Shown here one piece after another: positions 7,551 through 62,407 of a stretch of DNA of 64,000 nucleotides. The notes under the pieces are model-generated. The model searched no databases, was not told where the DNA came from, and worked only from the letters and a program-made list of their open reading frames with translations. The stretch covers positions 3,158 through 67,157 of the forward strand of contig JBPCWA010000510.1 of assembly GCA_051009975.1 (NCBI GenBank). The letters are read 5' to 3'. This DNA is from Hyphomicrobiaceae bacterium (GTDB lineage: Bacteria; Pseudomonadota; Alphaproteobacteria; Rhizobiales; Hyphomicrobiaceae). Every line of letters begins with the position of its first letter. The first letter of the stretch is position 1. The position numbers were made by a program, and so were the translations under genes.

Positions 7551-8204
7551 ACTTCAAACTAGCGGTTGGCAAGCCGCTGACGCATACGCAATACCGTGGA
7601 ACTCGAAGCGGCTTGCCTTAGATTATTGAACGTGCCAACGAGCACGTTTCTCGGGGACGCATGCCCCAACGCAGACGCAACAGAACAAAACGCAACGCTA
7701 CTTCTACAACGCAGTACGAAACCATTCTGCAGATCGAAGCGGTCACTCGACCGCTGAGCTGGCGATTGGCCAGTAACGCAAACTCGTTGGTCCAGTTCGG
7801 GTTGCCCGAGCTGTTCCTTGGCGGAACGTTTGAGCAAGGCTCGCGGAGTCATACGCAACAGTTTACTCTCCCTTAACTCGCACTTGCCAACGTGAGCCGA
7901 TACGCAGGTTCACACTGTGTCTCGCCGATGAGGGAGAATAAATCGTTGCTTCGTGGCCACATCGGGGCAGCTATCTGGCGCGGCGATGGAATTTCAATTG
8001 ACAAGTGTTCAGAATAACATGCTTTTTTGTGTTGTTTCGATATGGTTCTTGAAAAAAGAATTTAATATCAGAGAGTTAGGTTTTGTAAGTCAGTTGGCGG
8101 CAGATGTTGGGTTTTCCCCAGCAGAATGCGGGTGGGCTAGGTTTTGCGGCCGCGAGGCTTGTTGAGTGCATCGTCCGTCGATCTCTTGCGTATCGGTAGG
8201 CGTG

Positions 8205-8738
8205 CTAGGGTGCGTTGCTGGCGCTCGCTGCTGCTGCGGCTTTCGCGCATCCCATGGCGAGAGCAATGCACGCGATCGCGTTCCAGCCCGCAAACGAAAG
8301 CCCGATAAATCGCCACGTTGCTTCGCCGCAGCTCGCAAAAGAGGTCGATGATAGTTCCTCGACCAGGCTTGTTCCGCTCGAGCTCAATGGTTGGATGGCC
8401 TGTCCGTCGCACGTTGCAGGTCCTTGCCAAAATCCCCATTCCACGCCGGCATGGTAGGTGGCCAGCCCGGCATTCAAAAGAAAGCCCGTAGCGATGAGTG
8501 CAAAGAGAATGGCCGCGGGGCGGTCGCGCTCTAGGCCTACAAGAATGAGCCCGCCAAATAATGCTGGAATGGCAATGTAGTAGGCGTATCGCTGTTGCAG
8601 GCACAGGGGGCATGGTTGGTACCCTCCGAAGTGCTCGAAACCCAGCGCTGTCAATATGACAGCGGTCGCGGCGAATAGTGAGAACGAGCCCCATATGTAG
8701 GCAGGTTGGTCGGATATCGCTGATTTAGATTGCGCCAT
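8205..8738 (-). CDS. dsbB: disulfide bond formation protein B family (DsbB/BdbC-like)
   Basis: Four-TM profile with the first-loop CPLCLQQRYAYY motif and a second Cys pair (ATCDG ... SCGE) in the large loop. Confidence 0.85.
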   Translation of the reverse strand: MAQSKSAISDQPAYIWGSFSLFAATAVILTALGFEHFGGYQPCPLCLQQRYAYYIAIPALFGGLILVGLERDRPAAILFALIATGFLLNAGLATYHAGVEWGFWQGPATCDGQAIQPLSSSGTSLVEELSSTSFASCGEATWRFIGLSFAGWNAIACIALAMGCAKAAAAASASNAP

Positions 8739-26110: not shown

Positions 26111-27085
<975 letters not shown>

Positions 27086-27272
27086 ACTGAGCCGCAGACC
27101 CGCTTGTGGATTTGGTCATCGGCGTGCTTCATCGTACACTTTGAGTGCGCGATGAGAACTCCTTGCGCTATCTATCATCCTTCGCGTCAATGGGTGAGCT
27201 TTGCAGCGAGCTGCGAAATTCTGAGCAACTATGTTCAGATGTTCTGCGGCTCGCGATGAAAGGTGCCTTGAC

Positions 27273-28163
27273 ATGGACTGGGACAAGCTCCGCATCTTTC
27301 ATGCGGCTGCCGAAGCCGGCAGCTTCACGCATGCCGGCGAACACTTGAATATGAGCCAATCTGCGGTCAGCCGACAGGTATCGTCTCTTGAAAAGGATCT
27401 TGGCGTCGCGCTGTTTCACCGACACGCGCGCGGTCTTGTTCTCACCGAACAGGGAGAAACGTTATTTACGACCGCCACTGAAGTGATGACCAAGTTGCAT
27501 ACTGCAGAGACACTTCTGAGCGATGCGACAACGAAACCAACAGGCGATTTGCGTCTGACGTGTCCGGTCGGTCTCGGTACCGTTTGGGTGACCCAGCGCA
27601 TGCGTGAGTTTATGGATCTTTACCCCGACATTCGGGTTGAGTTGGTGCTCAATGATGAGATGTTGGACATCTCGATGCGGCTGGCTGACGCTGCCCTTTG
27701 GACACATGAGCCCGAACAAAGCGATTTGATCCGCCGTGTCTTGTTTCATGCCGGAGTTCGCGCATTCGCCTCGGCTCAATATGTGCGCCGATATGGTGCT
27801 CCGCGTTCGCTCGATGACCTAAACGATCACAGGATTGTGTCGCATAGCGGTGCCCCGGCCCAACATCTCTCGGCAATCCGATGGTTGGAGACCGCGGGCC
27901 GAAACGGGAGCGCACCCCGTATCCCTTCGTTTCGGGCCAACAGCGTGATTGCAATGAAATATGCTATCCGTTCGGGCGTCGGCATAGGGCTGATACCGGA
28001 GTACTTGGCGGAGGAGGAATCAGATTTAGTGCCCGTGCTGAATGAAGTTAAGTTACCAACTATGCCCGTCATTTTTGTCTACCCAGAAGAGCTGAAGACA
28101 TCGAAGAAAATTCAGGTATTGCGGGACTTTTTGGTGGCTCAAGCGAAAAAGTTCAAATACTAG
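27273..28163 (+). CDS. LysR-family transcriptional regulator
   Basis: MDWDKLRIFHAAAEAGSFTHAGEHLNMSQSAVSRQVSSLEKDLGVALF wHTH followed by the LysR substrate-binding domain. Confidence 0.88.
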   Translation: MDWDKLRIFHAAAEAGSFTHAGEHLNMSQSAVSRQVSSLEKDLGVALFHRHARGLVLTEQGETLFTTATEVMTKLHTAETLLSDATTKPTGDLRLTCPVGLGTVWVTQRMREFMDLYPDIRVELVLNDEMLDISMRLADAALWTHEPEQSDLIRRVLFHAGVRAFASAQYVRRYGAPRSLDDLNDHRIVSHSGAPAQHLSAIRWLETAGRNGSAPRIPSFRANSVIAMKYAIRSGVGIGLIPEYLAEEESDLVPVLNEVKLPTMPVIFVYPEELKTSKKIQVLRDFLVAQAKKFKY

Positions 28164-28578
28164 GGGCCAAGTGGCCCGCAGGTGATATGCGTACGACGCA
28201 TGCCTCACATGCGACGCTACTCCTTGTCGAAAAGTCATGTCTTGCGATTTATTATGGATGCTGTGACGGACAGCTAGTGAAGGCTGTACCCTCCCTTCAA
28301 CGCCTTCGACCCATCCTCTTGGATGTGGCTAACTTTGAGCCGGGCTTTGTGCCCGGCTCTCTTTTTTGGGTCTGCATGAGCGGTGTTCAAACAGAGTTCG
28401 CGCGTGCCACCCTTAAGCCTTTGAGACACAATCTGCCCTTGACGCGTACCACGGCTTTTGGGCGAGACGTTGCAGGTTCCGCTTGCAGGCAGTATCACAC
28501 TCGCCAAAAGCCGGTTGTTGGACAGTCCGTTGTTGGACAGTCCAATGTTAGAAGATTGAACGGGGAGGCCGTGGCGAG

Positions 28579-29982
28579 ATGGCACATACGCTCTACGACA
28601 AGATTTTTGACGCCCATATCGTGGATCGGCAAGACGATGGCACGTGCATCATATATATCGATCGTCATTTGGTACATGAAGTGACGAGTCCGCAGGCTTT
28701 CGAGGGGCTTCGTCTTGCTGGCCGCTCAGTTCGCGCGCCAGAAAAAACGTTGGCCGTAGTCGATCATAACGTTCCGACGACTGATCGAGCGAGAGGGATT
28801 GATGATCCTGAAGCCAAACTGCAGGTGGAAACGCTCGCAAAGAATGCCTCCGAGTTCGGAATTGAGTATTTCAACGAGACCGACCAGCGTCAGGGTATCG
28901 TGCATGTGATTGGCCCCGAGCAAGGTTTTACGTTGCCGGGCACAACGATTGTTTGCGGCGATAGCCACACATCGACACACGGAGCATTCGGTGCGCTGGC
29001 GCACGGGATTGGGACAAGCGAAGTTGAGCATGTCTTGGCGACCCAGACGCTGATCCAAAGCAAAGCAAAAAACATGCGGATCACGGTCGACGGGCAACTC
29101 AATGCAGGGGTGACAGCCAAGGATATCATTCTTGCCATTATTGGCAAGATTGGAACAGCTGGTGGGACGGGCCACGTCATCGAGTATTGCGGAAGCGCAA
29201 TCGAAGCCTTGTCGATGGAAGGTCGCATGACCGTTTGCAACATGTCGATCGAAGGAGGAGCGCGGGCGGGAATGGTGGCGCCGGACGATAAAACCTTGGA
29301 GTATTTAAAAGGTCGACCAAAGGCTCCGAAAGCGGGGGCCTGGGATATGGCCGTCAGATACTGGGAAACTCTGCGGTCAGACGACGATGCCCACTTTGAC
29401 AGGACAGTCACACTCGATGCCAACAATCTGCCGCCAACCGTCACTTGGGGAACGAGTCCCGAAATGGTCGCTACTATCGAGGATCACGTACCAGACCCGG
29501 TGCAGATCGAAGATGAGGGGCGGCGTCGTGCGGTCGAGCGAGCCCTCTCTTATATGGGCTTGGAAGCGAACACTAGGATTCAGGATATTGGTTTGGACGT
29601 GGTGTGGATTGGCTCATGCACGAATGGGCGTATCGACGATCTGCGCGCCGCAGCGCGGATCGTTAAGGGCAAACGCATATCCGAGCGATTGGACTATGCG
29701 CATGTCGTTCCAGGGTCAGGCTTAGTGAAGGCTCAGGCCGAAGCTGAGGGCCTCGACAAAGTATTCAGGGATGCTGGGTTCGACTGGCGCGAGCCAGGCT
29801 GCTCCATGTGTTTGGGAATGAATCCGGACCAGTTAAAGCCGGGCCAGCGTTGTGCAGCGACGTCAAATCGCAACTTTGAAGGACGTCAAGGCTATCGTGG
29901 TCGGACCCACCTGGTGTCCCCGGCGATGGCGGCCGCTGCGGCAATAGCAGGTCATTTTGTCGACGTGAGAGCCCTCAGCTGA
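28579..29982 (+). CDS. leuC: 3-isopropylmalate dehydratase large subunit
   Basis: [55 protein letters not shown] (aconitase-family Fe-S ligands). No leuD follows. Confidence 0.98.
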
Positions 29983-30210
29983 GTATTGCTACGTTTTCGG
30001 CGGGAGAATGGGCGTTCACTGTTGGCTGACGCAAGACGAGATTGAGCTTGACGCGTGTTAGCTCATATCGACGGCGGATGGTGTCCTTCAAGCTAACGTG
30101 ATGATTTGTTCATTGTGTCGCACAACCACTTGCGTATTTCAGTCTGACGCGGTGGAGCCGAGGCCCTACCCGAGAACTGGCCAGTAATCGAAGGCAAAAG
30201 GAGCCTACGT

Positions 30211-30519
30211 ATGAGCAAGAAAATTTCTACTGCAGCCATTGTTGCAGGCGCTGTGGCGATGGCTGCGAGTGGTATTCAGACGACTGGAGCCTCAGCGGGC
30301 GACATGGAGAAGTGTTACGGCATTTCGCTGGCTGGCAAGAATGACTGTAAGGCCGGTGCAGGGACGACATGCGCCGGAACATCGACGATTGACTATCAGG
30401 GAAACGCTTGGACGTTGGTTCCAAAGGGTAGCTGCGAAAGCCTGGCCTGGGACAAAGTTCTTCCGGGCGATCGAAAAGGTAGCCTTGCAGAGCTGAAGCG
30501 AGACAATCCATCATCGTAG
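30211..30519 (+). CDS. DUF2282-family secreted Cys-containing peptide; bufferin (BufA)-type RiPP precursor
   Basis: Strong SD (AAAGGAG). Sec signal peptide [29 protein letters not shown]. The core has four Cys in the DUF2282 pattern: [24 protein letters not shown]...[12 protein letters not shown]. Confidence 0.85.
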
Positions 30520-30610
30520 TCGATGCTCGTTGCTGCATTGGCGATATGTGCGTCTCAGGCGGCGCACCTAACACCTCGATGAACGCATAGCGATCAGGAA
30601 AGCGGCCCAT

Positions 30611-31501
30611 ATGATGGAGGCTCGGATCAACAGGACCAAGGCGTTGCCGGATCGAGCCGGTGTAGGTCTGAAGCCAGAGCACTTTGCAGAATTGCTGCAG
30701 GCTGAGCCAGATGTCGGCTGGTTTGAAGTACATCCCGAAAATTATATGGGCTCGGGCGGCCCACCCCATCGTTATCTGACTGCAATTCGCGAGCTGTATC
30801 CGCTCTCACTGCACGGGGTCGGGCTGTCCATTGGTTCTGCAGATCCTCTCGACAGGAACCATCTCAGCCGATTAAAGGCGCTCATCGAGCGGTACGAGCC
30901 GGATAGCTTTTCCGAGCATCTTGCCTGGTCAACACACGACGAGAGTTTTTTGAACGATTTGCTGCCGTTGCCCTACACGGACGAAACTTTGCGCATTGTT
31001 TGCGACCATGTTGACGAGGTGCAGGATTACCTCGCACGCCGGATGCTGTTGGAAAATCCTGCCACTTATGTCGTGTTTGAAGAGAGCACATACGAAGAAA
31101 TCGAGTTTTTGGAGGAGATTGCCTCGCGCACAGGTTGTGGATTGTTATTGGATGTCAACAACGTGTTCGTATCCTGCACCAATCACGCGCGATCCGCGAA
31201 TGATTACATCGATCGATTTCCCATTGCCTTGGTGGACGAGATCCATTTGGCGGGGCACGCCGAGGATCAGGATGACGCCGGCCAGCGTTTGTTGATAGAT
31301 GCACACGATCGTCGCGTCATTGGCGAAGTCTGGAAACTCTTCGAACGCGCCATTGCGCGCGATGGACCAAGGCCAACATTGATAGAATGGGACAACGACA
31401 TTCCAGCTTGGCCTGTCCTTTTTGCCGAGGCTCAACACGCCGAGTCGCTACTTCGTCGAATATCGATGTCTCGGAAAGCCCGCGATCATGCGATGGCGTG
31501 A
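30611..31501 (+). CDS. DUF692 / MbnB-like multinuclear non-heme iron oxidase (MNIO, BufB-type)
   Basis: [62 protein letters not shown] are DUF692 TIM-barrel signatures. Confidence 0.9.
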
Positions 31502-32258
31502 CGCGCAAAGCAGCTTCGTCGATCGTCTGTTTCAGTCCGATTTGGACGTCCCCGCCGGGATTGGAACTACGGGCGATTTTCCTGCAAAGAAGAGGTTCAA
31601 TGTTTATCGCAACAACGTCATGGCTAGCCTCTCTGATGCGTTGGTTTCAAATTATCCCGTCGTGAATACGCTTGTCGGTGACGAATTTTTTCGCGAAATG
31701 GCGCGTGTGTTTATTGTGTCGCACCCGCCAGGAACACCAGTATTGCTCGAATATGGTCGAGAATTTGCGTCTTTCATTGAAACGTTTGCCCCGGCGCGGA
31801 CTTTGCCCTATCTCGCCGATGTCGCGCGGCTCGAATGGGCATGGATCGTGGCTTACCATGCTGCCGACAGTGACCCGATAGCTATTGGAGCGCTGCAAGC
31901 GATCGCGGCGGATCAACTGGAGGAGGTCCGACTAGATTTTCACCCGTCCTTTCATTTGATTCGATCTGGGTGGCCTGCTGCATCGATCTGGCACGCCCAT
32001 CAATTTGACGACGACCCGGCGGTACGCATGCAAGATATCGCTCCGGAGCGCGAAAACGCGATTGTGGTTCGCCCGCGATCATCGGTCGACGTGCGACGTA
32101 TAAAGGCCGGTTCGGCAGAATTTGTAGCGTGTCTACGGCGTGGTGGAACGCTCGCTCAAGCCGCCGAACCATTGGCTGACGGAAGTAGCGATGATATGGG
32201 AGCAATGCTCCACTTGTTATTTGACTCCGGAAGCATTGTTGGCGTGTCGCACCCGTGA
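31488..32258 (+). CDS. DUF2063-family protein (BufC-type MNIO partner)
   Basis: [62 protein letters not shown] matches the DUF2063 N-terminal signature. The ATG at 31488 overlaps the end of the MNIO gene. Confidence 0.85.
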
Positions 32259-32334
32259 CAGACTTCAGTCCACCATACCAAAAGTCCACCATGTCAAATT
32301 TGAGTTTTTTACCTTAAATGGGGAGGCGTTGGCC

Positions 32335-32904
32335 ATGATATTGGCACTCAAGAACATTCATACGGGCGTCTTCCGCGCCTTGGAAAACCTTACAAACGGC
32401 TGGTTCGTCGGCCTAGCGGCACGTTTTGTATTCTCGAGTGTGCTATTGATGTACTTCTTGAACTCTGCGTCCACGAAAGTGGGATCTGATTTCCCTGGCG
32501 TTCTTGTTCCGACCTCGGGCGCGTATGCGCAAATGTTGCCTCCAGTAGCCGAGCAATTCGGCTACAACGCGGACAAGATCCCTTTCTTTCCTTACGGTTT
32601 AATTGTTTACGCGGGAACCTACGCGGAATTCCTGTTGCCAATTCTGGTCTTGGTGGGGTTGTTTACGCGCCTGTCGAGCCTCGGGCTCATCATATTCATT
32701 TTTGTAATGACGTACGTTGACATCTTTTTTCACGGGGTGGACGCGAAGACCATTGGCGAAATGTTTGATCGCATCCAGGACTCGCCAATCTGTGATCAGC
32801 GATTGCTCTGGTTGTTTCCGCTGGTGTATTTGGTTTTGAAAGGCCCAGGCCTGATCTCGCTTGACGCTCTTCTGGGATATTTTTTCGAGGAGGACGAAAT
32901 CTAG
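32335..32904 (+). CDS. DoxX-family membrane protein
   Basis: GGGGAGG SD about 8 nt before ATG 32335. Four hydrophobic segments (FVGLAARFVFSSVLLMYF, VYAGTYAEFLLPILVLVGLFTRL, SSLGLIIFIFVMTYV, LLWLFPLVYLVLKGPG) fit the DoxX layout. Confidence 0.8.
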   Translation: MILALKNIHTGVFRALENLTNGWFVGLAARFVFSSVLLMYFLNSASTKVGSDFPGVLVPTSGAYAQMLPPVAEQFGYNADKIPFFPYGLIVYAGTYAEFLLPILVLVGLFTRLSSLGLIIFIFVMTYVDIFFHGVDAKTIGEMFDRIQDSPICDQRLLWLFPLVYLVLKGPGLISLDALLGYFFEEDEI

Positions 32905-33856: not shown

Positions 33857-34088
33857 ATTGCCATTACCCTTGGTTGGAGCTGCGAGGTCTTAGAGAAACA
33901 TATGCTCCAGGTCTCAAAAACCGTGCCAAACGGGAGATTGGGCCTCGCTCAGAATAATATTTTCATGTGAGAACCGGGTTGGCCTGGCGACATCCGGCCA
34001 ATGATGCACGACTAAGATGCATCAAGCATAACAGGCGCAAAGAGATATACAGTTGACGATACGCGGCTATTCGAAGTATCAAATGGGT

Positions 34089-34142
34089 TCGTGGTGATTT
34101 GGCCGGCCGGCTTGCAGCCACGTAAAAAAACTCGCTAAAAGG
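34089..34142 (+). promoter_or_regulatory. SAM-II (alphaproteobacterial metA-type) riboswitch
   Basis: tcGTGGTGATTTGGCCGGCCGGCTTGCAGCCACGTAAAAAAACTCGCTAAAAGG matches my memory of the SAM-II consensus (GAUUUGGC...GGCUUGCAGCCAC...AAA..CGCUAAAA pseudoknot/triplex strands). It sits in the 5' leader of metZ. Confidence 0.7.
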
Positions 34143-34152
34143 CCGCGCGCGG

Positions 34153-34207
34153 ACCTGGCTCTGATCGCTCGGCTTTTGCGAGCTGTGATCGGCCAGGTTT
34201 TTTTGTG
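34153..34207 (+). terminator. Rho-independent terminator (riboswitch expression platform) ahead of metZ
   Basis: Long imperfect hairpin CCTGGC-ctGATC-GCTCG ... CGAGC-tgtGATC-gGCCAGG followed by TTTTTTT, about 45 nt before the metZ ATG. Confidence 0.6.
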
Positions 34208-34248: not shown

Positions 34249-35457
34249 ATGAAAGATGATGATGCCAAAAACGGCCGCTCAGACCGTTGGCTACCTCAGA
34301 CAACATTGGTCCATGGCGGCGTTCTACGCTCCCAGTTCGGTGAAACGTCCGAGGCACTCTACCTCACGCAAGGTTACCTCTACGACAGCGCGGAACAAGC
34401 TGAGCAACGCTTCAAGGATGAGGCAGGCGGATTCATCTATTCAAGATATGCAAATCCGACGGTTGCAATGTTTGAGGAACGCATGCGCTCGTTCGAAGGT
34501 GCCGGCGCTGGGCGTGCCACGGCAACAGGCATGGCTGCTGTTAGCGCGGCGATCTTGTCTTATGTGAGCGCCGGCGACCATGTGGTCTCTGCGCGAGCCT
34601 TGTTTGGGTCCTGTCGCTACATCGTCGAAGATCTTTGTCCAAGATATGGGATTGAGTCGACCCTCGTTCACGGACCTGACCTCGATCAATGGCGTGCAGC
34701 TGTTCGCTCGAATACTAAACTGTTCTTCTTCGAATCACCTTCCAATCCGACGCTTGATCTGGTCGACATTGTATCGGTCTGCAAAATTGCACGCGAAATT
34801 GGGGCACTCGTAGTCGTCGACAACGTCTTCGCGACGCCAATGCTACAAAGGCCGCTGGAACTCGGAGCGGACGTTGTGGTTTATTCGGCAACGAAACATA
34901 TTGATGGACAGGGCCGTTGCCTCGGTGGAATTGTTCTTGGCTCGAAAGACTACGTCAGTGACAACTTGCATACATACTTGAAGCATACCGGCCCATCGCT
35001 TAGTCCGTTCAACGCTTGGACTCTACTTAAGGGGCTCGAGACGCTGCCTGTTCGCGTACGGCAGCAGTGCGAAAGTGCAGATGTTGTGGCCCACAGTCTT
35101 AGCGGACGCCATGATATCAACAGGGTCATTTATTGTGGGCATGACTGTCATCCTCAGATCGAGCTGGCGAAACGTCAAATGCACGGGGGCGGGCAGATCG
35201 TATCGTTCGAATTGGCTGGAGGCAAAGTCCATGCCTTCAAGTTTTTAAATGCTCTGAAGTTGATAAGACTGTCCAACAATCTTGGAGATGCCAAGAGCCT
35301 TATCACGCATCCGGCGACGACGACCCATCAACGACTGAAACCCGAGGAGCGCGAGCGACTTGGCATTGGTGACGGCCTTGTTCGATTGTCGGTGGGTCTC
35401 GAAGCGACCGAGGATATTCTAGCTGACATCGAGGCTGCATTGGCCGCAGCTGGCTGA
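34249..35457 (+). CDS. metZ: O-succinylhomoserine sulfhydrylase (PLP-dependent Cys/Met metabolism family)
   Basis: WLPQTTLVHGG, YSRYANPTV, VVYSATKHIDGQG (PLP lysine), LSNNLGDAKSLITHPATTTH, LVRLSVGLE. Confidence 0.92.
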   Translation: MKDDDAKNGRSDRWLPQTTLVHGGVLRSQFGETSEALYLTQGYLYDSAEQAEQRFKDEAGGFIYSRYANPTVAMFEERMRSFEGAGAGRATATGMAAVSAAILSYVSAGDHVVSARALFGSCRYIVEDLCPRYGIESTLVHGPDLDQWRAAVRSNTKLFFFESPSNPTLDLVDIVSVCKIAREIGALVVVDNVFATPMLQRPLELGADVVVYSATKHIDGQGRCLGGIVLGSKDYVSDNLHTYLKHTGPSLSPFNAWTLLKGLETLPVRVRQQCESADVVAHSLSGRHDINRVIYCGHDCHPQIELAKRQMHGGGQIVSFELAGGKVHAFKFLNALKLIRLSNNLGDAKSLITHPATTTHQRLKPEERERLGIGDGLVRLSVGLEATEDILADIEAALAAAG

Positions 35458-35745: not shown

Positions 35746-38700
35746 ATGTCGATCCATGTGGCCCTAACCCACAGGACAACATACACTTACGACCGCCAGA
35801 TCAGTCTTGGTCCGCAAATTGTGCGGTTGCGGCCTGCGCCGCATAGCAGAACTCCCATCTTAAGCTATGCGCTTTCTCTCACGCCCGAAGACCATTTTCT
35901 CAACTGGCAGCAAGATCCCTTTGGTAACTTTCTCGCCCGCATGGTGCCGCATTCAAAGACCAAGGAGTTCTCAATAACGGTCGATTTGGTGGCGGACGTT
36001 TCGATTATCAATCCATTTAATTTCTTCCTCGAAGAGACGGCCATGCTGTGGCCGCCGTCGTACTCGGCGCTCGAACTTTCGGAACTCGCGCCATATCTGG
36101 CTCACGAGCCACCTGGAGACCGCCTCAAGGCGTATCTTACCGAGATCACAGGCGACATGGATGGCCAAACGATTGATGAAATTGTTGCGCTCAATCAGCG
36201 TGTGGAGCGAGATATCGGCTATGTCATTCGGATGGAAGAGGGAGTTCAGCCGGTAGAGGAAACCTTGCGTATGGCGTCAGGATCCTGTCGCGATAGCGGT
36301 TGGTTGTTGGTTAATATTCTTCGAAATCTCGGACTGGCCGCACGATTTGTTTCTGGCTATCTTATCCAGTTGAAGCCAGACGAAAGGCCCCTAGAAGGGC
36401 CGGTTGGTACCGATCAAGACTTCACAGATTTGCACGCATGGGCCGAAGTCTACCTTCCAGGGGCCGGTTGGGTTGGGCTTGATCCGACATCTGGATTGCT
36501 TGCTGGTGAGGGCCACATTCCCTTGGCGGCAGCCCCTCACTTCGCGTCCGCTGCTCCTATCTCCGGTCGCCATGAGCCGTCCGAAGTTTCGTTCGACTTC
36601 AGCATGCAAATTCGTCGGATCGCTGAAACACCCCGAGTAACAAAGCCTTATAGCGAGGTGCAATGGCGAGAAATTCTGGCGGCGGGACGAGATGTTGATG
36701 TGCGCCTCGAGAAGAGCGACGTACGTCTGACTATGGGCGGGGAACCCACATTCGTATCAGTCGATGACATGGATGGTGCAGAGTGGACGACCGAAGCGGT
36801 CGGTCCAACAAAGCGGGCGTTCGCCGAAGGTCTTGTACGCAGATTGGCGCGTCGGCGTGCGAGTGGGGCACTGCTGCATTTTGGGCAAGGTAAATGGTAT
36901 CCGGGCGAGCAGTTGCCGCGCTGGTCTTTCGCTGTTTACTGGCGCAAAGATGGTCAGCCGTTGTGGGAAGATGAAACCCTGATAGGATGGGAGAGGCCCG
37001 AAGTTCAGGCGTCGATACAATCGGCGGAGAATTTTACGCGCGAATTGTGCAATCAGATGGGGTTGCCGGCGGATAGTGCTTTGGCTGCCTATGAGGATGC
37101 TGCCTATTTCGCGCTGGTTGAGCAAAAATTGCCCCTGGGCGAGAGCGTATCCGAGAATGAGATCGAAGATGAAGCTGAGCGCGCACGTCTCATTAGGGCC
37201 TTTGATCGTGGATTAGCAACGCCAGTCGGATTCATTGTTCCTATCCAGGTATGGCAAACCAAGGATCGCGGTCGACGTTGGGTTACTGAGCGTTGGAGGA
37301 CACGACGCGACAAACTGTTTTTGCTACCTGGCGATTCACCTATTGGATTTCGATTGCCATTGGCTGGACTGCGCCACGTTCCAGGAACGGATTATCCGCA
37401 CATGAGGCCGCGTGATCCGCTTTCGCAATATGAGCCTTTGCCGCAACGTGCAGAACTTCTGTTTCAGCGTCGCTCAGTTGCACTTGAAGAAACTGCAGCC
37501 GCTGATGCGAACGTAGAAGAGATTGCGGGCAGTGTGCGCACAGCGATGGCTATCGAGCCGCGCGATGGTCAGCTCTGCATTTTCATGCCACCGCTAACTG
37601 ACGCTGAGGATTATGCGGCACTGGTGGCGGCTATTGAGGAGAGTGCAAAGCACACACGCACACCGATTCGAATTGAAGGCTACGAGCCACCAAGTGATCC
37701 GCGGCTGTGTGTTCTCAAAGTGACACCTGACCCTGGTGTCCTTGAAGTCAACACCAACCCGGTAGCGAATTGGGATGATGCAGTCGACGATACATATACG
37801 CTCTATGAAGATGCCCGCGAATCGAGGTTGGCAACTGAAAAGTTCATGATGGATGGGCGACATACCGGTACCGGTGGCGGCAACCATATTGTCCTCGGGG
37901 GCCCCTCCGCAGCTGACAGTCCCTTTTTGCGTCGCCCAGATCTCTTGGCCAGCATCATTACCTATTGGCAGCACCATCCCTCTTTGTCTTATCTCTTCTC
38001 CGGCTTGTTTCTCGGTCCAACGAGTCAGGCGCCACGCGTCGATGAGGCTCGTCATGAGCAGGTTTATGAGCTTGAAATTGCAATGGCTCAGCTGCCTGAA
38101 GTGGGAGCTGAGCCACCGCCACTTTGGTTAGTCGATCGATTGTTTCGAAACTTACTGATCGATTCGACCGGCAACACGCATCGTGCTGAAATTTGTATCG
38201 ACAAACTCTACTCGCCTGACGGACCGGCAGGTCGCCTCGGCCTGGTTGAATTTCGATCTTTTGAAATGCCGCCGCATGCGCGTATGAGTTTGGCGCAGCA
38301 ATTGCTTCTCCGGGCACTGGTTGCGGTTTTCTGGGAAAAGCCATATCGCCACCGTATGGTCCGATGGGGCACAGCGCTGCACGATCGCTTCATGTTGCCC
38401 CATTTTGTGTGGTCAGATTTTGTAAGTGTACTCGAGGACTTAAACGCCAATGACTTTGCATTCCGAGGGGAGTGGTTTGCACCGCATTTTGAATTTCGCT
38501 TTCCGGCCTACGGCTCGGTTTGCCACGGTGGTGTGAGATTGGAAGTTCGACAGGCGCTTGAACCGTGGCATGTCTTGGGAGAGGAAGGTGCCGTCGGAGG
38601 AACAGCTCGTTACGTCGATAGTTCTCTAGAGCGATTGCAAGTCATGTGCACAGGATTGGTTCCAGGCCGCCATACAATCCTGTGCCAGGGACAACGAGTG

Positions 38701-39045
38701 CCACTGATGGAAACCGGCGTGTGGGGAGAGGGCGTTGCAGGCATCCGCTATCGCGCGTGGCAACCACCGACCGCGTTGCATCCGACGATTGGAATTCACT
38801 CTCCTCTTACCTTCGATATTGTAGACACATGGTCGAATCGCTCGATCGGCGGTTGTCGGTACCATGTGTTTCACCCCGGTGGGAAGTCGCCGGACACCTT
38901 CCCAGTGAATTCCTATGAGGCTGAAGGACGGCGATTGGCAAGATTTGAAGCGATAGGTCACACACCTGGCGACGTCACGCTACCGCCGCCGATCGTCAAT
39001 CCCGACTATCCATCTACACTCGACCTTCGCCGCATTGGCGTGTGA
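35746..39045 (+). CDS. large transglutaminase-family protein (N-terminal transglutaminase-like region with core, plus a long DUF2126-type C-terminal region)
   Basis: MSIHVALTHRTTYTYDR... N-domain. The core has an intact Cys-His-Asp triad: ASGSCRDSGWLL, TDLHAWAEVYLPGAGW, VGLDPTSG. 1099 aa. Confidence 0.9.
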   Translation: MSIHVALTHRTTYTYDRQISLGPQIVRLRPAPHSRTPILSYALSLTPEDHFLNWQQDPFGNFLARMVPHSKTKEFSITVDLVADVSIINPFNFFLEETAMLWPPSYSALELSELAPYLAHEPPGDRLKAYLTEITGDMDGQTIDEIVALNQRVERDIGYVIRMEEGVQPVEETLRMASGSCRDSGWLLVNILRNLGLAARFVSGYLIQLKPDERPLEGPVGTDQDFTDLHAWAEVYLPGAGWVGLDPTSGLLAGEGHIPLAAAPHFASAAPISGRHEPSEVSFDFSMQIRRIAETPRVTKPYSEVQWREILAAGRDVDVRLEKSDVRLTMGGEPTFVSVDDMDGAEWTTEAVGPTKRAFAEGLVRRLARRRASGALLHFGQGKWYPGEQLPRWSFAVYWRKDGQPLWEDETLIGWERPEVQASIQSAENFTRELCNQMGLPADSALAAYEDAAYFALVEQKLPLGESVSENEIEDEAERARLIRAFDRGLATPVGFIVPIQVWQTKDRGRRWVTERWRTRRDKLFLLPGDSPIGFRLPLAGLRHVPGTDYPHMRPRDPLSQYEPLPQRAELLFQRRSVALEETAAADANVEEIAGSVRTAMAIEPRDGQLCIFMPPLTDAEDYAALVAAIEESAKHTRTPIRIEGYEPPSDPRLCVLKVTPDPGVLEVNTNPVANWDDAVDDTYTLYEDARESRLATEKFMMDGRHTGTGGGNHIVLGGPSAADSPFLRRPDLLASIITYWQHHPSLSYLFSGLFLGPTSQAPRVDEARHEQVYELEIAMAQLPEVGAEPPPLWLVDRLFRNLLIDSTGNTHRAEICIDKLYSPDGPAGRLGLVEFRSFEMPPHARMSLAQQLLLRALVAVFWEKPYRHRMVRWGTALHDRFMLPHFVWSDFVSVLEDLNANDFAFRGEWFAPHFEFRFPAYGSVCHGGVRLEVRQALEPWHVLGEEGAVGGTARYVDSSLERLQVMCTGLVPGRHTILCQGQRVPLMETGVWGEGVAGIRYRAWQPPTALHPTIGIHSPLTFDIVDTWSNRSIGGCRYHVFHPGGKSPDTFPVNSYEAEGRRLARFEAIGHTPGDVTLPPPIVNPDYPSTLDLRRIGV

Positions 39046-39323
39046 TCGGTAGACGGCAGCCAGTCTTTCATTTCGAGCTTAGGTGGTGATCGATGTTGCC
39101 GACCAAGCTAACTGATTTGCGCTTAACTTCAATGGGTTGTACGCTATCACGTGCGAATTGTGTCGGCCGTGGCGTGGTCCTGAATTTGGTGAAAGGAGGG
39201 GTAGGCTGCGACGGATGTGTCGAGAAGTCTTTTCATCATATGTTCGGCTCAACGTCTGTAGTGACGTCGAATAATCTTCTTGGATGTCGGACTGGGCCAA
39301 GTGATTCCAAGTCATTCCAAGGG

Positions 39324-39440
39324 AGGCCAGTCGAAGCGAGGCAGTCGAAGCGAGGCAGTCGAAGCGAGGCAGTCGAAGCAAGGCAGTCGAAGCAAGGCAG
39401 TCGAAGCAAGGCAGTCGAAGCAAGGCAGTCGAAGCAAGGC
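39324..39440. repeat. Eight head-to-tail copies of the 14-bp unit AGGCAGTCGAAGC(G/A), plus a partial ninth, in the spacer between cluster genes 1 and 2
   Basis: Read directly. The first unit has one extra C. Units 2-3 end in G and units 4-8 end in A. Because 14 is not a multiple of 3, all six frames give spurious repeat ORFs. Confidence 0.95.
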
Positions 39441-39479
39441 CATGTCGGGTGATCAGGCAATGTTGGGAGCCTATAGGAA

Positions 39480-42062
39480 TTGAACGTCGATAATTCATAT
39501 ACCTACGATAGATTTCCGAGAGCCTACGAACAGCTTCTGACAGACTATCGAAGGCAAACCAACGGATTTGATGAGCTCCTAGGCGCAGATGGTGCGGTGC
39601 GTGCCCATTGGCGCCCGATAATGAACGAACTCGATCGGCTTGGGCACGAGCGTGCAGCCGGGGTGTCGGAGAGGATCCAGCGGCGCATTGTCGAGAACGG
39701 CTTGACGCTTGACAGCTTTGCCGATCCCAAGAATGCGGATCAGCCTTGGAATCTCAATTTGGTGCCGTTGGTTCTTCCTATTGGAGAATGGCGGACCATT
39801 GAGCAAGCAGTGATACAGCGGGCGCGTCTTTATGAATTGCTCCTCGCCGATCTCTATGGACCTCAATCCGTCATTTCCGAGGGGCTGTTGCCGGGTGAGT
39901 TAATATTCAACGATCCAACATTTCTCCGTCCCATGCATGGGACGCCAGCAGTACCACGAAGGCTGATGTTCATGGCGGCCGATTTGGCGCGCGGAAGCGA
40001 CGGCCGCTGGCGACTTCTCGATATTCATGCAGAAACGCTCGCAGGCCATGGATATGCACTGGCCAATCGCGTTGTGCTAGCTGACGTGTGCGCGCGCCAG
40101 TTTCATGAGAGCAACGCGCTGCGTATTTCGCAATTTTATCAGGACGTCGCTCGGGAATTGGGAAGTCGCGCAAACAAGGAGGTCCCCAATATCGTAATTC
40201 TCGGGCCGAATCCGGACTACGAGACCTACCTCAGTCATGCTTATACGGCGCGATACTTGGGGTATCCGTTGGTGGAAGGGAGCGATGTCCGTGTCGTTGG
40301 AGGCAAGCTCTATCATAAGACCCTGGCAGGCTTGCAGCCGATCGATCTCGTTGTGCGCGCGGTAGAGGCTCTAAAGTCGGATCCACTTGAGCTCGATCCG
40401 AACGCGTTTGACGGCCCGCCCGCGCTGGTGCAAGCGGCACGGACCGATCCAGGATTGCTCGCCAATGCGCTCGGTACGGCCATTGTAGAAAACCGCGGAC
40501 TTGCGCCCTACCTAGCAAAGTTGAGCCAGCATCTGTTGGGTGAAGTACCCATGATTTTCGATGCAGAACGCCTTTGGCTGGGCGATCCTGCCGTTCGGGC
40601 GGCGGTGATTGGTAACGGCGGTGAAGGGTACCTCATCCGCTCAGCCTTCGAAGGAACAGCGCGACCAGGGCAAGCCAATCCGGGTGAACTTCTCTCGCCG
40701 GCCGATACTGATCGTTACGCCGAGATGGTTTCGGAGATAGAGCTTAACGGCACACGTTATGTTGCCGAGAAGTCTTTGCAGTTTGCTACGGCCCCAGCCT
40801 GGACGTCCGAGGGACTGACACCAAGGCCATACGCGTTGCGCGTTTTCGTTGCTGCGAGCGGAGATAGTTACAGCGTTATGCCAGGCGGCATTGCACTCAC
40901 GATCGATTGCGGCGCAGCGATTGCATTGACGTCGGACGCAGCCGAATCGCGCGATGTTTGGATTTCGGCCGCAGAGCCACAGGGACCTCACTTTAGTCGA
41001 TGGCGCCTGTCCGTGGAAGAAACTCAAGTTCAGCGTATCGGTACGCGGCTGCCGAGTCGCGTTGCCGACAACTTGTATTGGCTTGGCAGGTATGTCGAAC
41101 GCGCGGACTGGACGATGCGAGTTATGCGAAATGCGTTGCAACGCGGTGAGGAAGACTTACGCCCCATCAGACGAACAGACGCAGCCGAAAGTGCTCTCGC
41201 GATAATGATCAAGAAGGGGCGCGAGGCGGCAGACGTTGCCCGTGAATCGGACGGACCGGTGTCCATCGAGGCGCGAGTGGAGGAGCTTTTTGCTGCAGCT
41301 GAGCGGCCATATGGAATTCGCACGACCTTTCGACACATCCGACGCGTGGCACGTCAAAGCCGAGATCGCTTGTCAGCCGACGCGTGGCGGGTTCTGAGTA
41401 GTTTGTCAATCGCTGGCGATACATCCTCTGCAGGCGGCGCGGATCCAACGATTGAACTGGCCGAGCGCTTGGACAGCCGTATCGCCCAACTGGCGGCATT
41501 CAACGGCCTGATGCACGAAAACATGACGCGCAACTTTGGGTGGCGGTTTCTGGATCTAGGGCGGCGGCTGGAGCGAGCGCAGCAAATGGCCGAATTGCTG
41601 AAATCTCTGCTTTTGAATGCGATGAGCGAAGCCGACGAGACGGAGCGGCTTGCATTCCTTTTGGAGACATCTGATAGTTTTATGACTTATCGTGCGCGAT
41701 ATCGTTTTGCGCCGTCATTCCCTCTTGTACTCGATTTGCTTATGGTCGATGAAACCAATCCGCGAAGTTTGTCATTTCAACTTGTAGGAATTTCAGACCA
41801 TATCGCAGAGCTGCCGAAAGCATCGGTCGATGCGATCCGAACACCAGAGCAGCGTCAGGCGTTGGAGTTGCTGACGCTCGTCCGTTTGGCCGACTTGGAG
41901 GCACTTCGTACGGTCGATGAAGATGGGGTTCGGGGCGGGCTGGCGGACTTGCTCGACCGGATTATCGGCGGCCTGCCGGAACTGTCGGATACAATATCAC
42001 GGCGCTATTTTAGCCTTACCGAAGAGCGACCACATCGTGTTCACACGCGTCTCGAGCACTAG
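39480..42062 (+). CDS. circularly permuted type-2 ATP-grasp domain fused to an alpha-E domain (DUF404/DUF407 + DUF403 type)
   Basis: FDELLGADGAVRAHWRPIMNEL..., PWNLNLVPLVLPIGEWRTIEQAVIQRARLYELLLADLYGPQ is the characteristic N-terminus. The C-terminal third (ADNLYWLGRYVERAD ... GWRFLDLGRRLERAQ) is the alpha-E repeat signature. TTG start at 39480 is uncertain. Confidence 0.9.
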   Translation: MNVDNSYTYDRFPRAYEQLLTDYRRQTNGFDELLGADGAVRAHWRPIMNELDRLGHERAAGVSERIQRRIVENGLTLDSFADPKNADQPWNLNLVPLVLPIGEWRTIEQAVIQRARLYELLLADLYGPQSVISEGLLPGELIFNDPTFLRPMHGTPAVPRRLMFMAADLARGSDGRWRLLDIHAETLAGHGYALANRVVLADVCARQFHESNALRISQFYQDVARELGSRANKEVPNIVILGPNPDYETYLSHAYTARYLGYPLVEGSDVRVVGGKLYHKTLAGLQPIDLVVRAVEALKSDPLELDPNAFDGPPALVQAARTDPGLLANALGTAIVENRGLAPYLAKLSQHLLGEVPMIFDAERLWLGDPAVRAAVIGNGGEGYLIRSAFEGTARPGQANPGELLSPADTDRYAEMVSEIELNGTRYVAEKSLQFATAPAWTSEGLTPRPYALRVFVAASGDSYSVMPGGIALTIDCGAAIALTSDAAESRDVWISAAEPQGPHFSRWRLSVEETQVQRIGTRLPSRVADNLYWLGRYVERADWTMRVMRNALQRGEEDLRPIRRTDAAESALAIMIKKGREAADVARESDGPVSIEARVEELFAAAERPYGIRTTFRHIRRVARQSRDRLSADAWRVLSSLSIAGDTSSAGGADPTIELAERLDSRIAQLAAFNGLMHENMTRNFGWRFLDLGRRLERAQQMAELLKSLLLNAMSEADETERLAFLLETSDSFMTYRARYRFAPSFPLVLDLLMVDETNPRSLSFQLVGISDHIAELPKASVDAIRTPEQRQALELLTLVRLADLEALRTVDEDGVRGGLADLLDRIIGGLPELSDTISRRYFSLTEERPHRVHTRLEH

Positions 42063-42248
42063 ATCAAAATGGGCGATCCATGACAGAGTATTGTCGATGT
42101 TCGAGCTTTTTCGGTTCCATTGTCTATTCAGAAATATGTGCAACTCGGTCAGATTCGCTCGATAGGTTTTGGTTGAAGAAATTTGTGCCGGAGATAGTCT
42201 CAAACACATCATCGCAGAACGGGATCGGCCGCTAGGCCCTTAGGCTCA

Positions 42249-43145
42249 ATGAACTACGAGATCAGCCACACGACGACATACCAATACGCACACTCCGTAC
42301 ATCAATCCTATCACTTGGTTCATCTCACTCCTCGTGTCGTCGCGCATCAGGTCATTGCAGAGCATCACATTACTGTTGAACCGGTCCCAGGGGGGCAGTG
42401 GGGAGGCGTTGATTATTTTGGCAACCCATACAGTATCCTTAATGTTGAAATCGAACACAATCGGCTTGTGGTGAGTTCTGCAAGCAAAGTTCAGGTCCAC
42501 GCCAAAGCCCTACTTGCACTGGACGAAACAACCCCTTGGAGGGCGTTGGCGCGTCGAGACGTTCCGAATATTGAGCAACATAAGGACGTGTGGCAATTCA
42601 CGGCTATGTCGCGGCATGGCCCGCTGGTCCAAGCATTGGCGGAATATGCTCAACCATCGTTTTCGAACAATTGCCCAGTATTGGTCGGTGTCGCCGACCT
42701 GACGCGGCGCATCTATGAAGACTTTTCGTTTGATCCGACTGCAACTGATGTGTCAACGCCGGTAGAAACAGTTCTCAAGCAGCGGCGCGGAGTATGTCAG
42801 GATTTCGCACATTTGCAAATCGCAGCTCTGCGATCTCTGGGGCTTCCGGCAAAGTATGTGAGCGGCTATATTTTAACGCATCCACCAGAGGGTCAGCAAC
42901 GTCTGGTTGGGGCCGACGCATCGCACGCTTGGATATCGACATGGGCCCCAGAGTGCGGCTGGGTAGACTTTGATCCGACCAACAATGTTATTCCGAGCGA
43001 TGAACACATAACCGTTGCCTACGGTCGTGACTATGATGACGTTAGTCCAATCAGTGGAGTGTTGCTCGGAGGTGGTCACCATTCCGTTCAAGTGGCGGTC
43101 GACGTTGTTCCGGTTCAGGCTGCAGAAGATGGTGTCGGTCTATAG
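42249..43145 (+). CDS. transglutaminase-family protein (bacterial TGase N-terminal domain plus cysteine-protease-like core)
   Basis: MNYEISHTTTYQYAHSV N-domain and an intact triad: RRGVCQDFAHL, ADASHAWISTW, WVDFDPTN. Confidence 0.9.
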   Translation: MNYEISHTTTYQYAHSVHQSYHLVHLTPRVVAHQVIAEHHITVEPVPGGQWGGVDYFGNPYSILNVEIEHNRLVVSSASKVQVHAKALLALDETTPWRALARRDVPNIEQHKDVWQFTAMSRHGPLVQALAEYAQPSFSNNCPVLVGVADLTRRIYEDFSFDPTATDVSTPVETVLKQRRGVCQDFAHLQIAALRSLGLPAKYVSGYILTHPPEGQQRLVGADASHAWISTWAPECGWVDFDPTNNVIPSDEHITVAYGRDYDDVSPISGVLLGGGHHSVQVAVDVVPVQAAEDGVGL

Positions 43146-47349: not shown

Positions 47350-47532
47350 CCCGATTGTCCATTCTTCAGAAAGCTGCGTGTCATGACCTAGCGCGATCCC
47401 GCCGAATACCAGTATTAGAGTTATGCGCCAATGATTCGTGCCATAAATCCAGAGACGCCATGTGTTTACACTCTATGGAATTGCACGAATATTGCGAATC
47501 GAGGCCCAGTAGTCGAAGGATCGCGACTGTCG

Positions 47533-48162
47533 ATGCCGTTTCAGAACCGTGTAACACCCGATGGCCAGATCGTTGCCACACCAGCGCGGGGAACGCTGAT
47601 GGGAAATCGTGGCGGCCAGATGCACCGGGTAGACAAATCGCTCGGACCCAAGCGCTGGGTGACCAAACAGTGGATCACCTGTCGCCTCTCGTACAAGGGG
47701 CGATGGCGTGAAGTGATGGCGCCGAACTCCTACACAGAACTGTTTTTTCTAGACGAAGCAACGTCGTTCGCCGCTGGCCATCGACCGTGTTATGAGTGTC
47801 GACGACGGGAAGCTGTATATTTCTCCGAGCTTTGGGGCGAGGTGTTCGGAGCGGGCGATCGCGCGAAGGCAGGCGATATCGACAACACACTACATTCCGA
47901 AAGACTGAGCGCAGACGGAAGAAAGGCGAGTTTCACGGCGGAGGTCGGCACGTTGCCTACGGCAACGATGGTATTTTGGCGAGATGGAATGTATCTGCTC
48001 TTGGCAGGGCGGATGCTGAGGTGGTCGCTTGATGGATACGGTGCTGCCGTCGATCCTGATCCGGCACTACAGGTTGAAGTGCTGACGCCACGGAGTACTG
48101 TCGAGATTTTTCGCATGGGTTATGATGCGGATCTGCATGAAACAGCTTTGCGGTTCACGTGA
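47533..48162 (+). CDS. conserved hypothetical protein
   Basis: MPFQNRVTPDGQIVATPARGTLMGNRGG...YTELFFLDEATSFAAGHRPCYECRR. I recall homologues annotated only as hypothetical. The start is chosen at ATG 47533. Confidence 0.6.
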   Translation: MPFQNRVTPDGQIVATPARGTLMGNRGGQMHRVDKSLGPKRWVTKQWITCRLSYKGRWREVMAPNSYTELFFLDEATSFAAGHRPCYECRRREAVYFSELWGEVFGAGDRAKAGDIDNTLHSERLSADGRKASFTAEVGTLPTATMVFWRDGMYLLLAGRMLRWSLDGYGAAVDPDPALQVEVLTPRSTVEIFRMGYDADLHETALRFT

Positions 48163-51246: not shown

Positions 51247-51762
51247 TCAGACGCAGGCCCTCGGTGCTAAGATGGCAACGCCAGTCTCGTCAAACACTCC
51301 GTCGATATACTGCAGTCGTCCGTCAGGTGCGCTCAACCGGGCGCTGGCCTTTCCGCCTTGAATTTCGCCAAAAGTCAGATGGTCCGTGTCAGTATCGCGA
51401 CCGATGCGATCGTCCAAATCGACGAGATATGTAAAGTTCTTGCCCTCCACAAACCCGCTGAACGTGAGTTGTCCGTGTCGGTCGCCCTCAGTTAGACCTT
51501 CTACTGATTTCAGTTTGACATCACCATCATTGCGCAATTCCGCTGCGCCGTATCCAGTGTCAACATACGCTAGACCGTCCGAGGAATTGAGGTCCAGCTC
51601 GATCAATTGGATAGTCAATCCTGGTCCACTGACGAACTCGAACCGAAAATAGTCTGGTGAGGCTTCGGCAAAAACTATCCTTACCTGGGGACCACAGGCG
51701 GCCGCGGATTGGGCCAAGGCAATGCACATAAGGGACGAAATAGCGACGACCCACAGTCTCAT
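51247..51762 (-). CDS. hypothetical secreted protein
   Basis: Signal peptide MRLWVVAISSLMCIALAQSAAA, then a beta-rich sequence with an N-terminal Cys (ACGP) and a C-terminal Cys (RACV). No family recognised. Confidence 0.55.
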   Translation of the reverse strand: MRLWVVAISSLMCIALAQSAAACGPQVRIVFAEASPDYFRFEFVSGPGLTIQLIELDLNSSDGLAYVDTGYGAAELRNDGDVKLKSVEGLTEGDRHGQLTFSGFVEGKNFTYLVDLDDRIGRDTDTDHLTFGEIQGGKASARLSAPDGRLQYIDGVFDETGVAILAPRACV

Positions 51763-52191
51763 CCGATTTGCGTCAACGCTCACGCTGCACTCCATTGGTT
51801 TGACCAAGACGGCATTGCAGTGTTTCTGAGATAGCCGAAGAGATGCTCATCACGTGCTCCGTACTGAGGCACTTTGTTGCACGCGCTACGCGAAAGTGCA
51901 TCGCACCGCAAAACTTTGGCTTCGCATGGGACACATGCGCGCCAGATGCGGAAAATTGATCTGCAATAGTGTTATTTTGTCGGACCCTTCCTTGTCGGAT
52001 CGGTCTCTGCCTCTGTGCGCCCCTAGGCAGAGCACATCCCGACCATGGGAGATGCTTTCTGCGGCCTCGACCATTTGATGATGCGCGAGATGCAATCAAG
52101 ACCATGTTCGCTCAACGCCACGTGTCATCTACTCTATTCGCGTCTACATTCGCGTCTACCGGCTCTCAATATTGCGTGTGCATCAGGTCAG

Positions 52192-61387: not shown

Positions 61388-62407
61388 TCACTGGCTGGGG
61401 CTTGACGGTGGAGCATCGTTTGCAAGCCGTACCGGCCCTGGCTGGCTGCGCAGCATGGCTCCGGCAATGCCATGATGGCTGATCAGCGTTGTCGAAGCAC
61501 GCCCGCCAGGTGGGGCCTCGCCGTTCCACCAAGCAGAGAACTGGCGCCAAAGATCTGTTACGAGGAGCCACCCGTAGGGCTCATGCGACAATGGGACGTC
61601 ATAAGGTGCGTACGTGAACTTGTACTCGAAAAATACTGATGTCCGACCTAGCTGGATCTCTAGTCCGGCCAATGCCTGCCCGACAAACCCGGCGAAGTGA
61701 TATTCATACGTGCGAGCTCTCTCCGAATGAATGCCAATTTCGGTATGTGGCAAAGAGATGCCTGCCCCGGCTCCGACATATGGTCGAAACCGGCTCCAAG
61801 CAGGCGCCAATCTCGCCATTCCGTTGAGTGTGAGCATGTTGTGTCCATGGCTGAATTCCAAATGACGGAAAACGTCGCCCATGCGCTGCTTGGACGGAAG
61901 AGTTTCGCCATTCAACGTGCCTTCGAATGTTGCAATGTCGTCACGTTGGGCGATCGCTTTCGCATGGGTAAAGTCCAACATGCTGCCGAACTGTCCGTTT
62001 GAGCCCCACCGTTGAATACGCACACCGTAATAGATCGGTGCCTTGAATGGTCGACCGATCCAACCGAAATCTTTAACCGTCATATCTGTACGGCCCGGAT
62101 TCACAAAGCGAACCGCAGAAGGGTGGGTGTACGCGACGCCACCGTAACCCCCAATCGCCCATTCTGTTCCGGCCGCTGAGGCGGGTCGTGCCGATCCGCT
62201 GGAACTGCCAGAACGAGCAGCGGTGGACGCAGCAGCATCATCTGGCCCAGTCTCGACGTTGAGGGCCGTCGGTAGAAGTTGAGTGGCAAACAAGAACGCG
62301 TACGCACAGCCCCCTATGACCGCCAAAGCCCTATCGCGCCAGCCACTCCTCGATCCGTCGCCCCATCCGCAATGGATCGGCGATTTTTGAATACTACTGA
62401 TAGTCAT
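61388..62407 (-). CDS. putative outer-membrane beta-barrel protein (possibly PagL/LpxQ/OmpW-like; family not certain)
   Basis: Starts at MTISSIQKS (ATG 62407). It has a hydrophobic N-terminal segment and alternating-hydrophobic strands (YVGAGAGISL, FAGFVGQALAGLEIQL, SVFFEYKFTYA). Confidence 0.55.
   Translation of the reverse strand: MTISSIQKSPIHCGWGDGSRSGWRDRALAVIGGCAYAFLFATQLLPTALNVETGPDDAAASTAARSGSSSGSARPASAAGTEWAIGGYGGVAYTHPSAVRFVNPGRTDMTVKDFGWIGRPFKAPIYYGVRIQRWGSNGQFGSMLDFTHAKAIAQRDDIATFEGTLNGETLPSKQRMGDVFRHLEFSHGHNMLTLNGMARLAPAWSRFRPYVGAGAGISLPHTEIGIHSERARTYEYHFAGFVGQALAGLEIQLGRTSVFFEYKFTYAPYDVPLSHEPYGWLLVTDLWRQFSAWWNGEAPPGGRASTTLISHHGIAGAMLRSQPGPVRLANDAPPSSPSQ

Follow-up and report, generated by a model that had tools for sequence, protein, structure and literature searches.

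A canonical buf1ABCD cluster, probably encoding a copper-buffering bufferin, in a Hyphomicrobiaceae bacterium

The four genes at positions 30211 to 32904 of a 64-kb stretch of DNA from a Hyphomicrobiaceae bacterium (the window, meaning the whole stretch that was analysed) are judged, with a probability of about 0.88, to be a canonical buf1ABCD biosynthetic gene cluster (BGC) of this organism, the product of which would be a copper-buffering bufferin. The sequence-only reading of this DNA had proposed a bufferin-type operon for a ribosomally synthesised and post-translationally modified peptide (RiPP), made up of four co-directional genes for a DUF2282 precursor, an MNIO enzyme of the DUF692 family, a DUF2063 partner and a DoxX membrane protein; the open reading frames (ORFs) were all present where it had placed them, and the motifs that it quoted were all found (Table 1). 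In the Pfam scan, in which matches were counted against gathering scores, all four proteins scored above theirs, with 85.6 bits for DUF2282 (gathering score 22.4, residues 32-79), 360.8 bits for the MNIO family, 89.1 bits for DUF2063 (27.2) and 31.1 bits for DoxX (23.6). The profile hidden Markov model check that had been proposed for the four proteins thus gave the expected families, and together with the score of BufB above its equivalog cutoff and a Cys spacing in BufA equal to that of Caulobacter BufA1 it bears out the identification as a bufferin-type RiPP operon. The Buf1-type assignment is supported on every feature that can be tested in silico, and the sequence holds nothing that contradicts it.

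Existing database entries agree with these gene calls. BufA is 100% identical to GenBank entry MGI9524024.1, named "BufA1 family periplasmic bufferin-type metallophore", and BufC and BufD are exact matches to MGI9524026.1 ("HvfC/BufC N-terminal domain-containing protein") and MGI9524027.1 ("DoxX family protein"), which confirms the boundaries of bufC and bufD; all three entries lie on one 68-kb contig of a Hyphomicrobiaceae metagenome-assembled genome. The genes had been described as tightly spaced, which applies to the bufB/bufC junction, where there is a 14-nt overlap, and not to the rest of the operon, because the bufA-bufB and bufC-bufD gaps measure 91 nt and 76 nt, respectively. The most plausible bufC start is the ATG at 31488, and its overlap with the end of bufB, as first read, suggests that the two genes may be translationally coupled. 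An alternative bufB start is the second ATG, at 30614. For bufD, the listed ORF opens at a GTG at 32140, but the gene itself begins with the ATG at 32335, downstream of GGGGAGG.

The precursor had been read as a 102-aa protein with four Cys in the DUF2282 pattern, and the closer comparison upheld this. Its Cys residues, C35 (CysI), C46 (CysII), C54 (CysIII) and C75 (CysIV), are spaced 11/8/21, as are Cys12, Cys23, Cys31 and Cys52 of Caulobacter BufA1, in which 5-thiooxazoles are made from CysII and CysIII and a disulfide joins CysI to CysIV (PMC11626156). The contexts D-C46-K and T-C54-A match Asp22-Cys23-Lys24 and Ser30-Cys31-Ala32 of the Caulobacter peptide (PMC11626156) in D-C-K at CysII and C-A at CysIII. 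The N-terminus is predicted to be of the Sec type as well, and the predicted core has 5 residues before CysI here as against 11 in Caulobacter. All four Cys are invariant in 42 aligned homologues, and exactly four Cys are present in 118 of the 120 nearest BufA protein clusters. The BufA2 model NF050166 gave 20.2 bits, below its cutoff of 60, and the protein has four Cys only, not six or twelve, in keeping with a precursor of the Buf1 type rather than the Buf2 type. A sequence search of the PDB with BufA returned chance matches only.

The identification of the second protein as a DUF692/MbnB-like MNIO enzyme was strengthened at the level of both family and active site. The match of BufB to PF05114 (MbnB_TglH_ChrH, MNIO) covers the whole model, and the NCBIfam equivalog NF050167 (MNIO_BufB) was matched at 398.2 bits with a cutoff of 310, whereas BufB fell below the NCBIfam cutoffs for HvfB (243 vs 360) and MbnB (51 vs 325) and also failed those for ApyH and ChrH. 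Nine putative iron-site residues (H68, H103, E148, D181, N183, H212, D230, H232 and E259) show no variation in any of 80 homologues and align with identical residues of the MNIO structure 3BWW. Three of them, N183, D230 and H232, are the counterparts of N175, D242 and H244 of HvfB, site-3 residues that are essential in that enzyme; the other six presumably belong to sites 1 and 2, an assignment made through MbnB numbering with matching spacings. Failure of the DUF2282 match and loss of the MNIO ligands had been named as findings that would speak against the operon's identity; both were looked at, and DUF2282 scored and the nine putative iron-site residues are present.

The remaining two proteins were placed in their families as first proposed, a DUF2063 partner (PF09836) with an ATG overlapping the end of the MNIO gene and a DoxX membrane protein (PF07681) closing the set. 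BufC reached 55 bits against the HvfC model (cutoff 142), and a PDB sequence search with it gave no match. A hydropathy scan of BufD indicated about four hydrophobic segments, and its score against the HvfX model was 27 bits (cutoff 80). The BufB scan yielded at least 519 genomic loci, and the locus comparisons reported here use the best 80 of these (labelled L001 onwards); about half of them have a bufD homologue at the same position, and 20 further DoxX ORFs occur among the ORFs flanking the buf genes of relatives. The DoxX gene is frequent in the Buf1 family and is not essential.

Table 1. Features of the buf1ABCD operon and its upstream region, in window coordinates.
Feature	Position	Strand	Description
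Conserved upstream block TCAAGCTAACGTGATGATTTGTTCATTGTGTC	30088-30119	+	Candidate promoter/operator; aligns with L001-L004 and L007
Shine-Dalgarno AAGGAG of bufA	30198-30203	+	7 nt ahead of ATG; read from sequence
bufA	30211-30519	+	102-aa BufA1-type (DUF2282) bufferin precursor; PF10048
Predicted Sec signal peptide, aa 1-29	30211-30297	+	Cleavage A29/G30, by inspection and the -3/-1 rule
Predicted 73-aa core peptide	30298-30516	+	Unmodified average mass 7596.4 Da; includes 27-aa tail
Cys codons of bufA	30313 (C35), 30346 (C46), 30370 (C54), 30433 (C75)	+	
bufB	30611-31501	+	296-aa MNIO (DUF692) bufferin maturase; PF05114, NF050167
bufC	31488-32258	+	256-aa DUF2063 partner protein; PF09836
bufD	32335-32904	+	189-aa DoxX-family membrane protein; PF07681

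Among characterised systems, the closest in layout is buf1ABCD of Caulobacter vibrioides (CCNA_03363-03366 / CC3254-CC3257, bufferin 1), which has the same order of DUF2282, MNIO, DUF2063 and DoxX genes, with a DoxX protein (CC3257) of 150 aa as compared to the 189 aa of BufD here. The Caulobacter operon differs in having an adjacent sigF-nrsF pair and a GTAACC-N16-CGAA promoter (PMC3511200), neither of which is present in the window. Within the Hyphomicrobiales, SMb20530-SMb20527 of Sinorhizobium meliloti likewise form a four-gene operon with DUF692 and DUF2063 genes; that operon is controlled by RpoE7 (ECF16) and runs divergently from rpoE7-ecfR7, and its promoter has been mapped as TGTAACA-N16-CGAAT (PMC6180224); again the window is without both the gene pair and the promoter. 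The Lys-Cys repeat captophorins, i.e. oxazolin/Hvf (hvfABC with the DoxX-like HvfX), fontiphorin and gonophorin, would share with this cluster the MNIO and DUF2063 pair, a Sec-exported precursor, 5-thiooxazole chemistry and copper binding, but their precursors carry EGKCG repeats, whereas BufA is a DUF2282 protein without them. The methanobactin system MbnABC is alike in that an MNIO acts on Cys of a ribosomal peptide and yields a copper ligand, and differs in its partner MbnC, which is not a DUF2063 protein, in a leader peptide without Sec export and in an oxazolone/thioamide product. Neither MbnC nor MbnA is present here, and BufB scores only weakly against MbnB, as given above.

On the model of the homologous Buf1 of Caulobacter vibrioides (PMC11626156), C46 and C54 would be oxidised in the cytoplasm by the BufB/BufC complex, with O2 and an iron cofactor, and each would become a 5-thiooxazole with a loss of 4 Da. 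The peptide would then be exported by Sec and cut by signal peptidase after A29, a C35-C75 disulfide would form in the periplasm, and the thiooxazoles of the product (~7.6 kDa) would chelate Cu(I)/Cu(II), so that periplasmic copper would be buffered. BufD would be an accessory protein, probably dispensable for the modification. Transcription would most likely start from the operon's own promoter in the 228-nt leuC-bufA spacer, in which the conserved block at 30088-30119 marks a probable promoter site, and a regulator encoded elsewhere, not a SigF/ECF16 sigma factor, would act at this block.

Several observations weigh against this interpretation of the locus. The proposed chemistry, export and copper phenotype are all carried over by analogy from one or two characterised homologues, and BufA is only distantly related to the Caulobacter protein, with a tail of 27 aa as compared to 16 (11 aa longer). 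The signal peptide of BufA was judged by inspection only, on which the N-terminus looks like a Sec signal (MSKK, a KK n-region, an Ala/Val-rich h-region and A-S-A at -3 to -1, followed by GD). The structure model of BufA is unreliable: AlphaFold, given the 42-sequence alignment, returned a mean pLDDT (predicted local distance difference test) of 54, too low for a fold comparison, and the strands at 32-36 and 67-71 and short helices near CysIV in this model would agree, at low confidence, with the published description of BufA1 (PMC11626156). In addition, neither a copper-responsive regulator nor a SigF-type promoter is present at the operon.

The cluster had been framed as rare or unusual, and this is not supported. 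There are at least 7992 BufA homologues at E<=1e-3 among 8000 candidates scored, a search at the level of 50%-identity clusters gave 1209 of them, and the identical BufA is already named BufA1 in GenBank. Bufferins are the largest group of MNIO-modified RiPPs (PMC11626156, PMC12452194), and the wider captophorin class comprises more than 20,000 BGCs in RefSeq (PMC13097082). The locus is an ordinary member of a very large known family, labelled as such in GenBank, and the order bufA-bufB-bufC is kept in all 80 of the best loci.

The position of the operon directly after leuC had also been singled out. The adjacency itself is confirmed, with leuC at 28579-29982 and a gap of 228 nt to bufA, and it is not a special feature of this genome, being a synteny found in four related Hyphomicrobiaceae genomes. 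The arrangement trxB-lysR-leuC-bufABCD (window 26120-32904) is kept in full in L001 and L004, and leuC-bufABCD is kept in L002 and L003, for which the retrieved upstream sequence was short or ended at a contig end; these four loci belong to Hyphomicrobiaceae or Filomicrobium. The scan of the window covered 58 ORFs, including all those of 150 aa or more, and turned up no leuD, which is therefore located elsewhere. Displacement of leuD by bufABCD was rejected on account of the conserved lineage synteny between leuC and bufA.

The neighbourhood of the operon was annotated by direct Pfam scans, and the comparison with relatives covered 150 ORFs around the buf genes of 63 of the nearest loci (within L001-L069). 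The recurrent flanking families were DoxX, with the 20 ORFs noted above, HSP20 (8) and AhpC/Redoxin (6), and the recurrence of the latter two beside the buf operons of relatives hints at a general stress-gene neighbourhood. The Sigma70 and NrsF families each had fewer than two members among these 150 ORFs, and the 58 scanned ORFs of the window included no Sigma70_r2/r4 or NrsF protein. The observation that no extracytoplasmic function (ECF) sigma/anti-sigma pair adjoins the operon is thus confirmed for the window, and such an arrangement is the norm among the nearest relatives rather than a distinguishing feature.

A search of 29983-30210 for the SigF/NrsF-type promoter motif that had been suggested for this interval was negative, with no counterpart of either the SigF (GTAACC-N16-CGAA) or the RpoE7 (TGTAACA-N16-CGAAT) promoter; three SigF/ECF16 motif matches lie in other parts of the window, no more than chance would give. 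Of the 80 loci, only five (L018, L041, L043, L065 and L076) carry a GTAAC[AG]-N16-CGAA-like motif, with one mismatch allowed, 40-65 nt ahead of bufA. As ECF16/SigF-like motifs thus occur in a minority of loci, there seem to be two or more regulatory classes of bufferin operon. The spacer upstream of bufA instead holds a 32-nt block, TCAAGnnAACGTGA-N7-TTCATTGTGTC, ~92-123 nt ahead of the gene, which is common to the five nearest Hyphomicrobiaceae loci and has a single occurrence in the window. The hexamer TGATTT within this block (often TGATTTCC) occurs upstream of bufA in 25 of the 80 loci as compared to 5.2 +/- 2.1 in random windows of the same loci, an imperfect control in that the random windows are mostly coding sequence and the loci are related. 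In Roseibium loci this TGATTT(CC) core of the block lies inside a GAT-N9-ATC dyad.

Several identities were considered for the block and set aside. Inspected by eye, it has neither the form of a clean inverted repeat nor that of a sigma-70 promoter, and the motif comparison with SigF/ECF16-type sites was negative. The RirA box is TGA-N9-TCA, and the block contains TGA-N8-TCA; no assignment to RirA was made. No sigma-70-like promoter was found on the + strand between 29900 and 33300, and no terminator was found after leuC. The leuC-bufA spacer has no significant RNA structure (z = -0.55), neither an attenuator nor a terminator was found in the bufA-bufB spacer (folding z = +0.8), and no Rfam family matched in or upstream of the operon. 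In the lysR-leuC spacer, a sub-threshold match to the mmgR/suhB small RNA family RF00519 was recorded at 28306-28374 (+), with 32.8 bits as against 41 and E = 6e-4, overlapping weak BjrC1505 and SorX matches.

Three other explanations of the cluster were weighed. The one that survives best, though it is unlikely, accepts the same genes and chemistry and assigns them to another metal (Cd, Au, Cr or Hg) or to oxidative/chlorine stress instead of copper defence. Gold, cadmium and chromate induce homologous operons, which in Bordetella are under BvgAS control (PMC3511200), MerC-bufferin fusion proteins exist, HSP20 and AhpC/Redoxin genes recur beside the operons of relatives, as described above, and Caulobacter-type SigF regulation is absent at the window operon. 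However, bufferins and captophorins have been shown to bind copper and to protect against it, and no other phenotype has been demonstrated for them (PMC11626156, PMC13097082); in addition, no metal-specific gene adjoins the cluster in the window. It is far less probable still that the two central Cys would be turned into oxazolone-thioamide pairs of the methanobactin kind. The two products are isomers and hard to distinguish, and oxazolin was first assigned the oxazolone/thioamide structure (PMC11252979), but oxazolin was later revised to 5-thiooxazole, DUF2063-dependent MNIOs appear to install 5-thiooxazole generally (PMC13097082) and Buf1 was assigned 5-thiooxazole by nuclear magnetic resonance (PMC11626156); the low score of BufB on the MbnB model also speaks against such pairs. 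Least probable of all is an unmodified, merely disulfide-bonded periplasmic DUF2282 protein, with enzymes that are inactive or have another substrate: the literature notes stand-alone precursor genes and leaves it undecided whether every such cluster is functional, but here the four genes are intact, bufB and bufC overlap, all putative iron-site residues of BufB are kept, gene order is conserved across the 80 loci, and no second DUF2282-like or other precursor ORF was found in the window.

The sequence-only reading had drawn attention to a charged tail of roughly 25 aa after the last Cys of BufA as a special feature of this copy. The tail exists and comprises the 27 aa after CysIV, but as a unique feature it was ruled out, because all 120 of the nearest clusters have a tail of 18-33 aa after the last Cys, 60 of them with exactly 27 aa and the same sequence. 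Within it, P85, R88, G90, S91, R97 and D98 are invariant in the 42-sequence alignment. In a set of 124 more distant representatives, the most frequent class of tail (65/124) measures 15-24 aa and has a '...P.G..GSL.P.' motif, and an RD.P extension is seen in a subset (15-19/124). The tail is thus a trait of the subfamily, given its conservation across relatives, and not a peculiarity of this copy.

Other features of the window lie apart from the operon. A SAM_alpha riboswitch (RF00521) was found at 34081-34158 (+), at 76.4 bits with a gathering score of 36, directly upstream of a metZ-like gene for a Cys/Met pyridoxal-phosphate enzyme (34249-35457); the related SAM-II model (RF01726) matches only weakly at the same place. 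Three genes at 35746-43145 (+) encode a transglutaminase/DUF2126 protein of 1099 aa, a circularly permuted ATP-grasp and Alpha-E protein of 860 aa and a transglutaminase-like protein of 298 aa, and are followed on the opposite strand by a gamma-glutamyltranspeptidase gene. Four ORFs of 185-395 aa, at 47431-48162 (+), 61388-62575 (-), 8137-8694 (-) and 51247-51807 (-), had no Pfam match at E<=1e-4.

A tentative proposal, which we consider improbable, is that the Hyphomicrobiaceae/Rhodospirillales Buf1 subfamily has a different regulator acting at TCAAGnnAACGTGA-N7-TTCATTGTGTC, along with a function of its own for the tail LPxxRKGSLxxLxRDxP, e.g. BufC recognition or periplasmic docking. If true, these operons would represent a distinct regulatory and functional branch of bufferins. 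The locus has little significance beyond correct annotation, being one more uncharacterised member of a very large class of copper-binding RiPPs that was defined only recently. It is of modest use as one case among the numerous bufferin operons of Alphaproteobacteria without Caulobacter-type SigF/NrsF control, and the search for the regulator of such operons could begin from the conserved upstream block.

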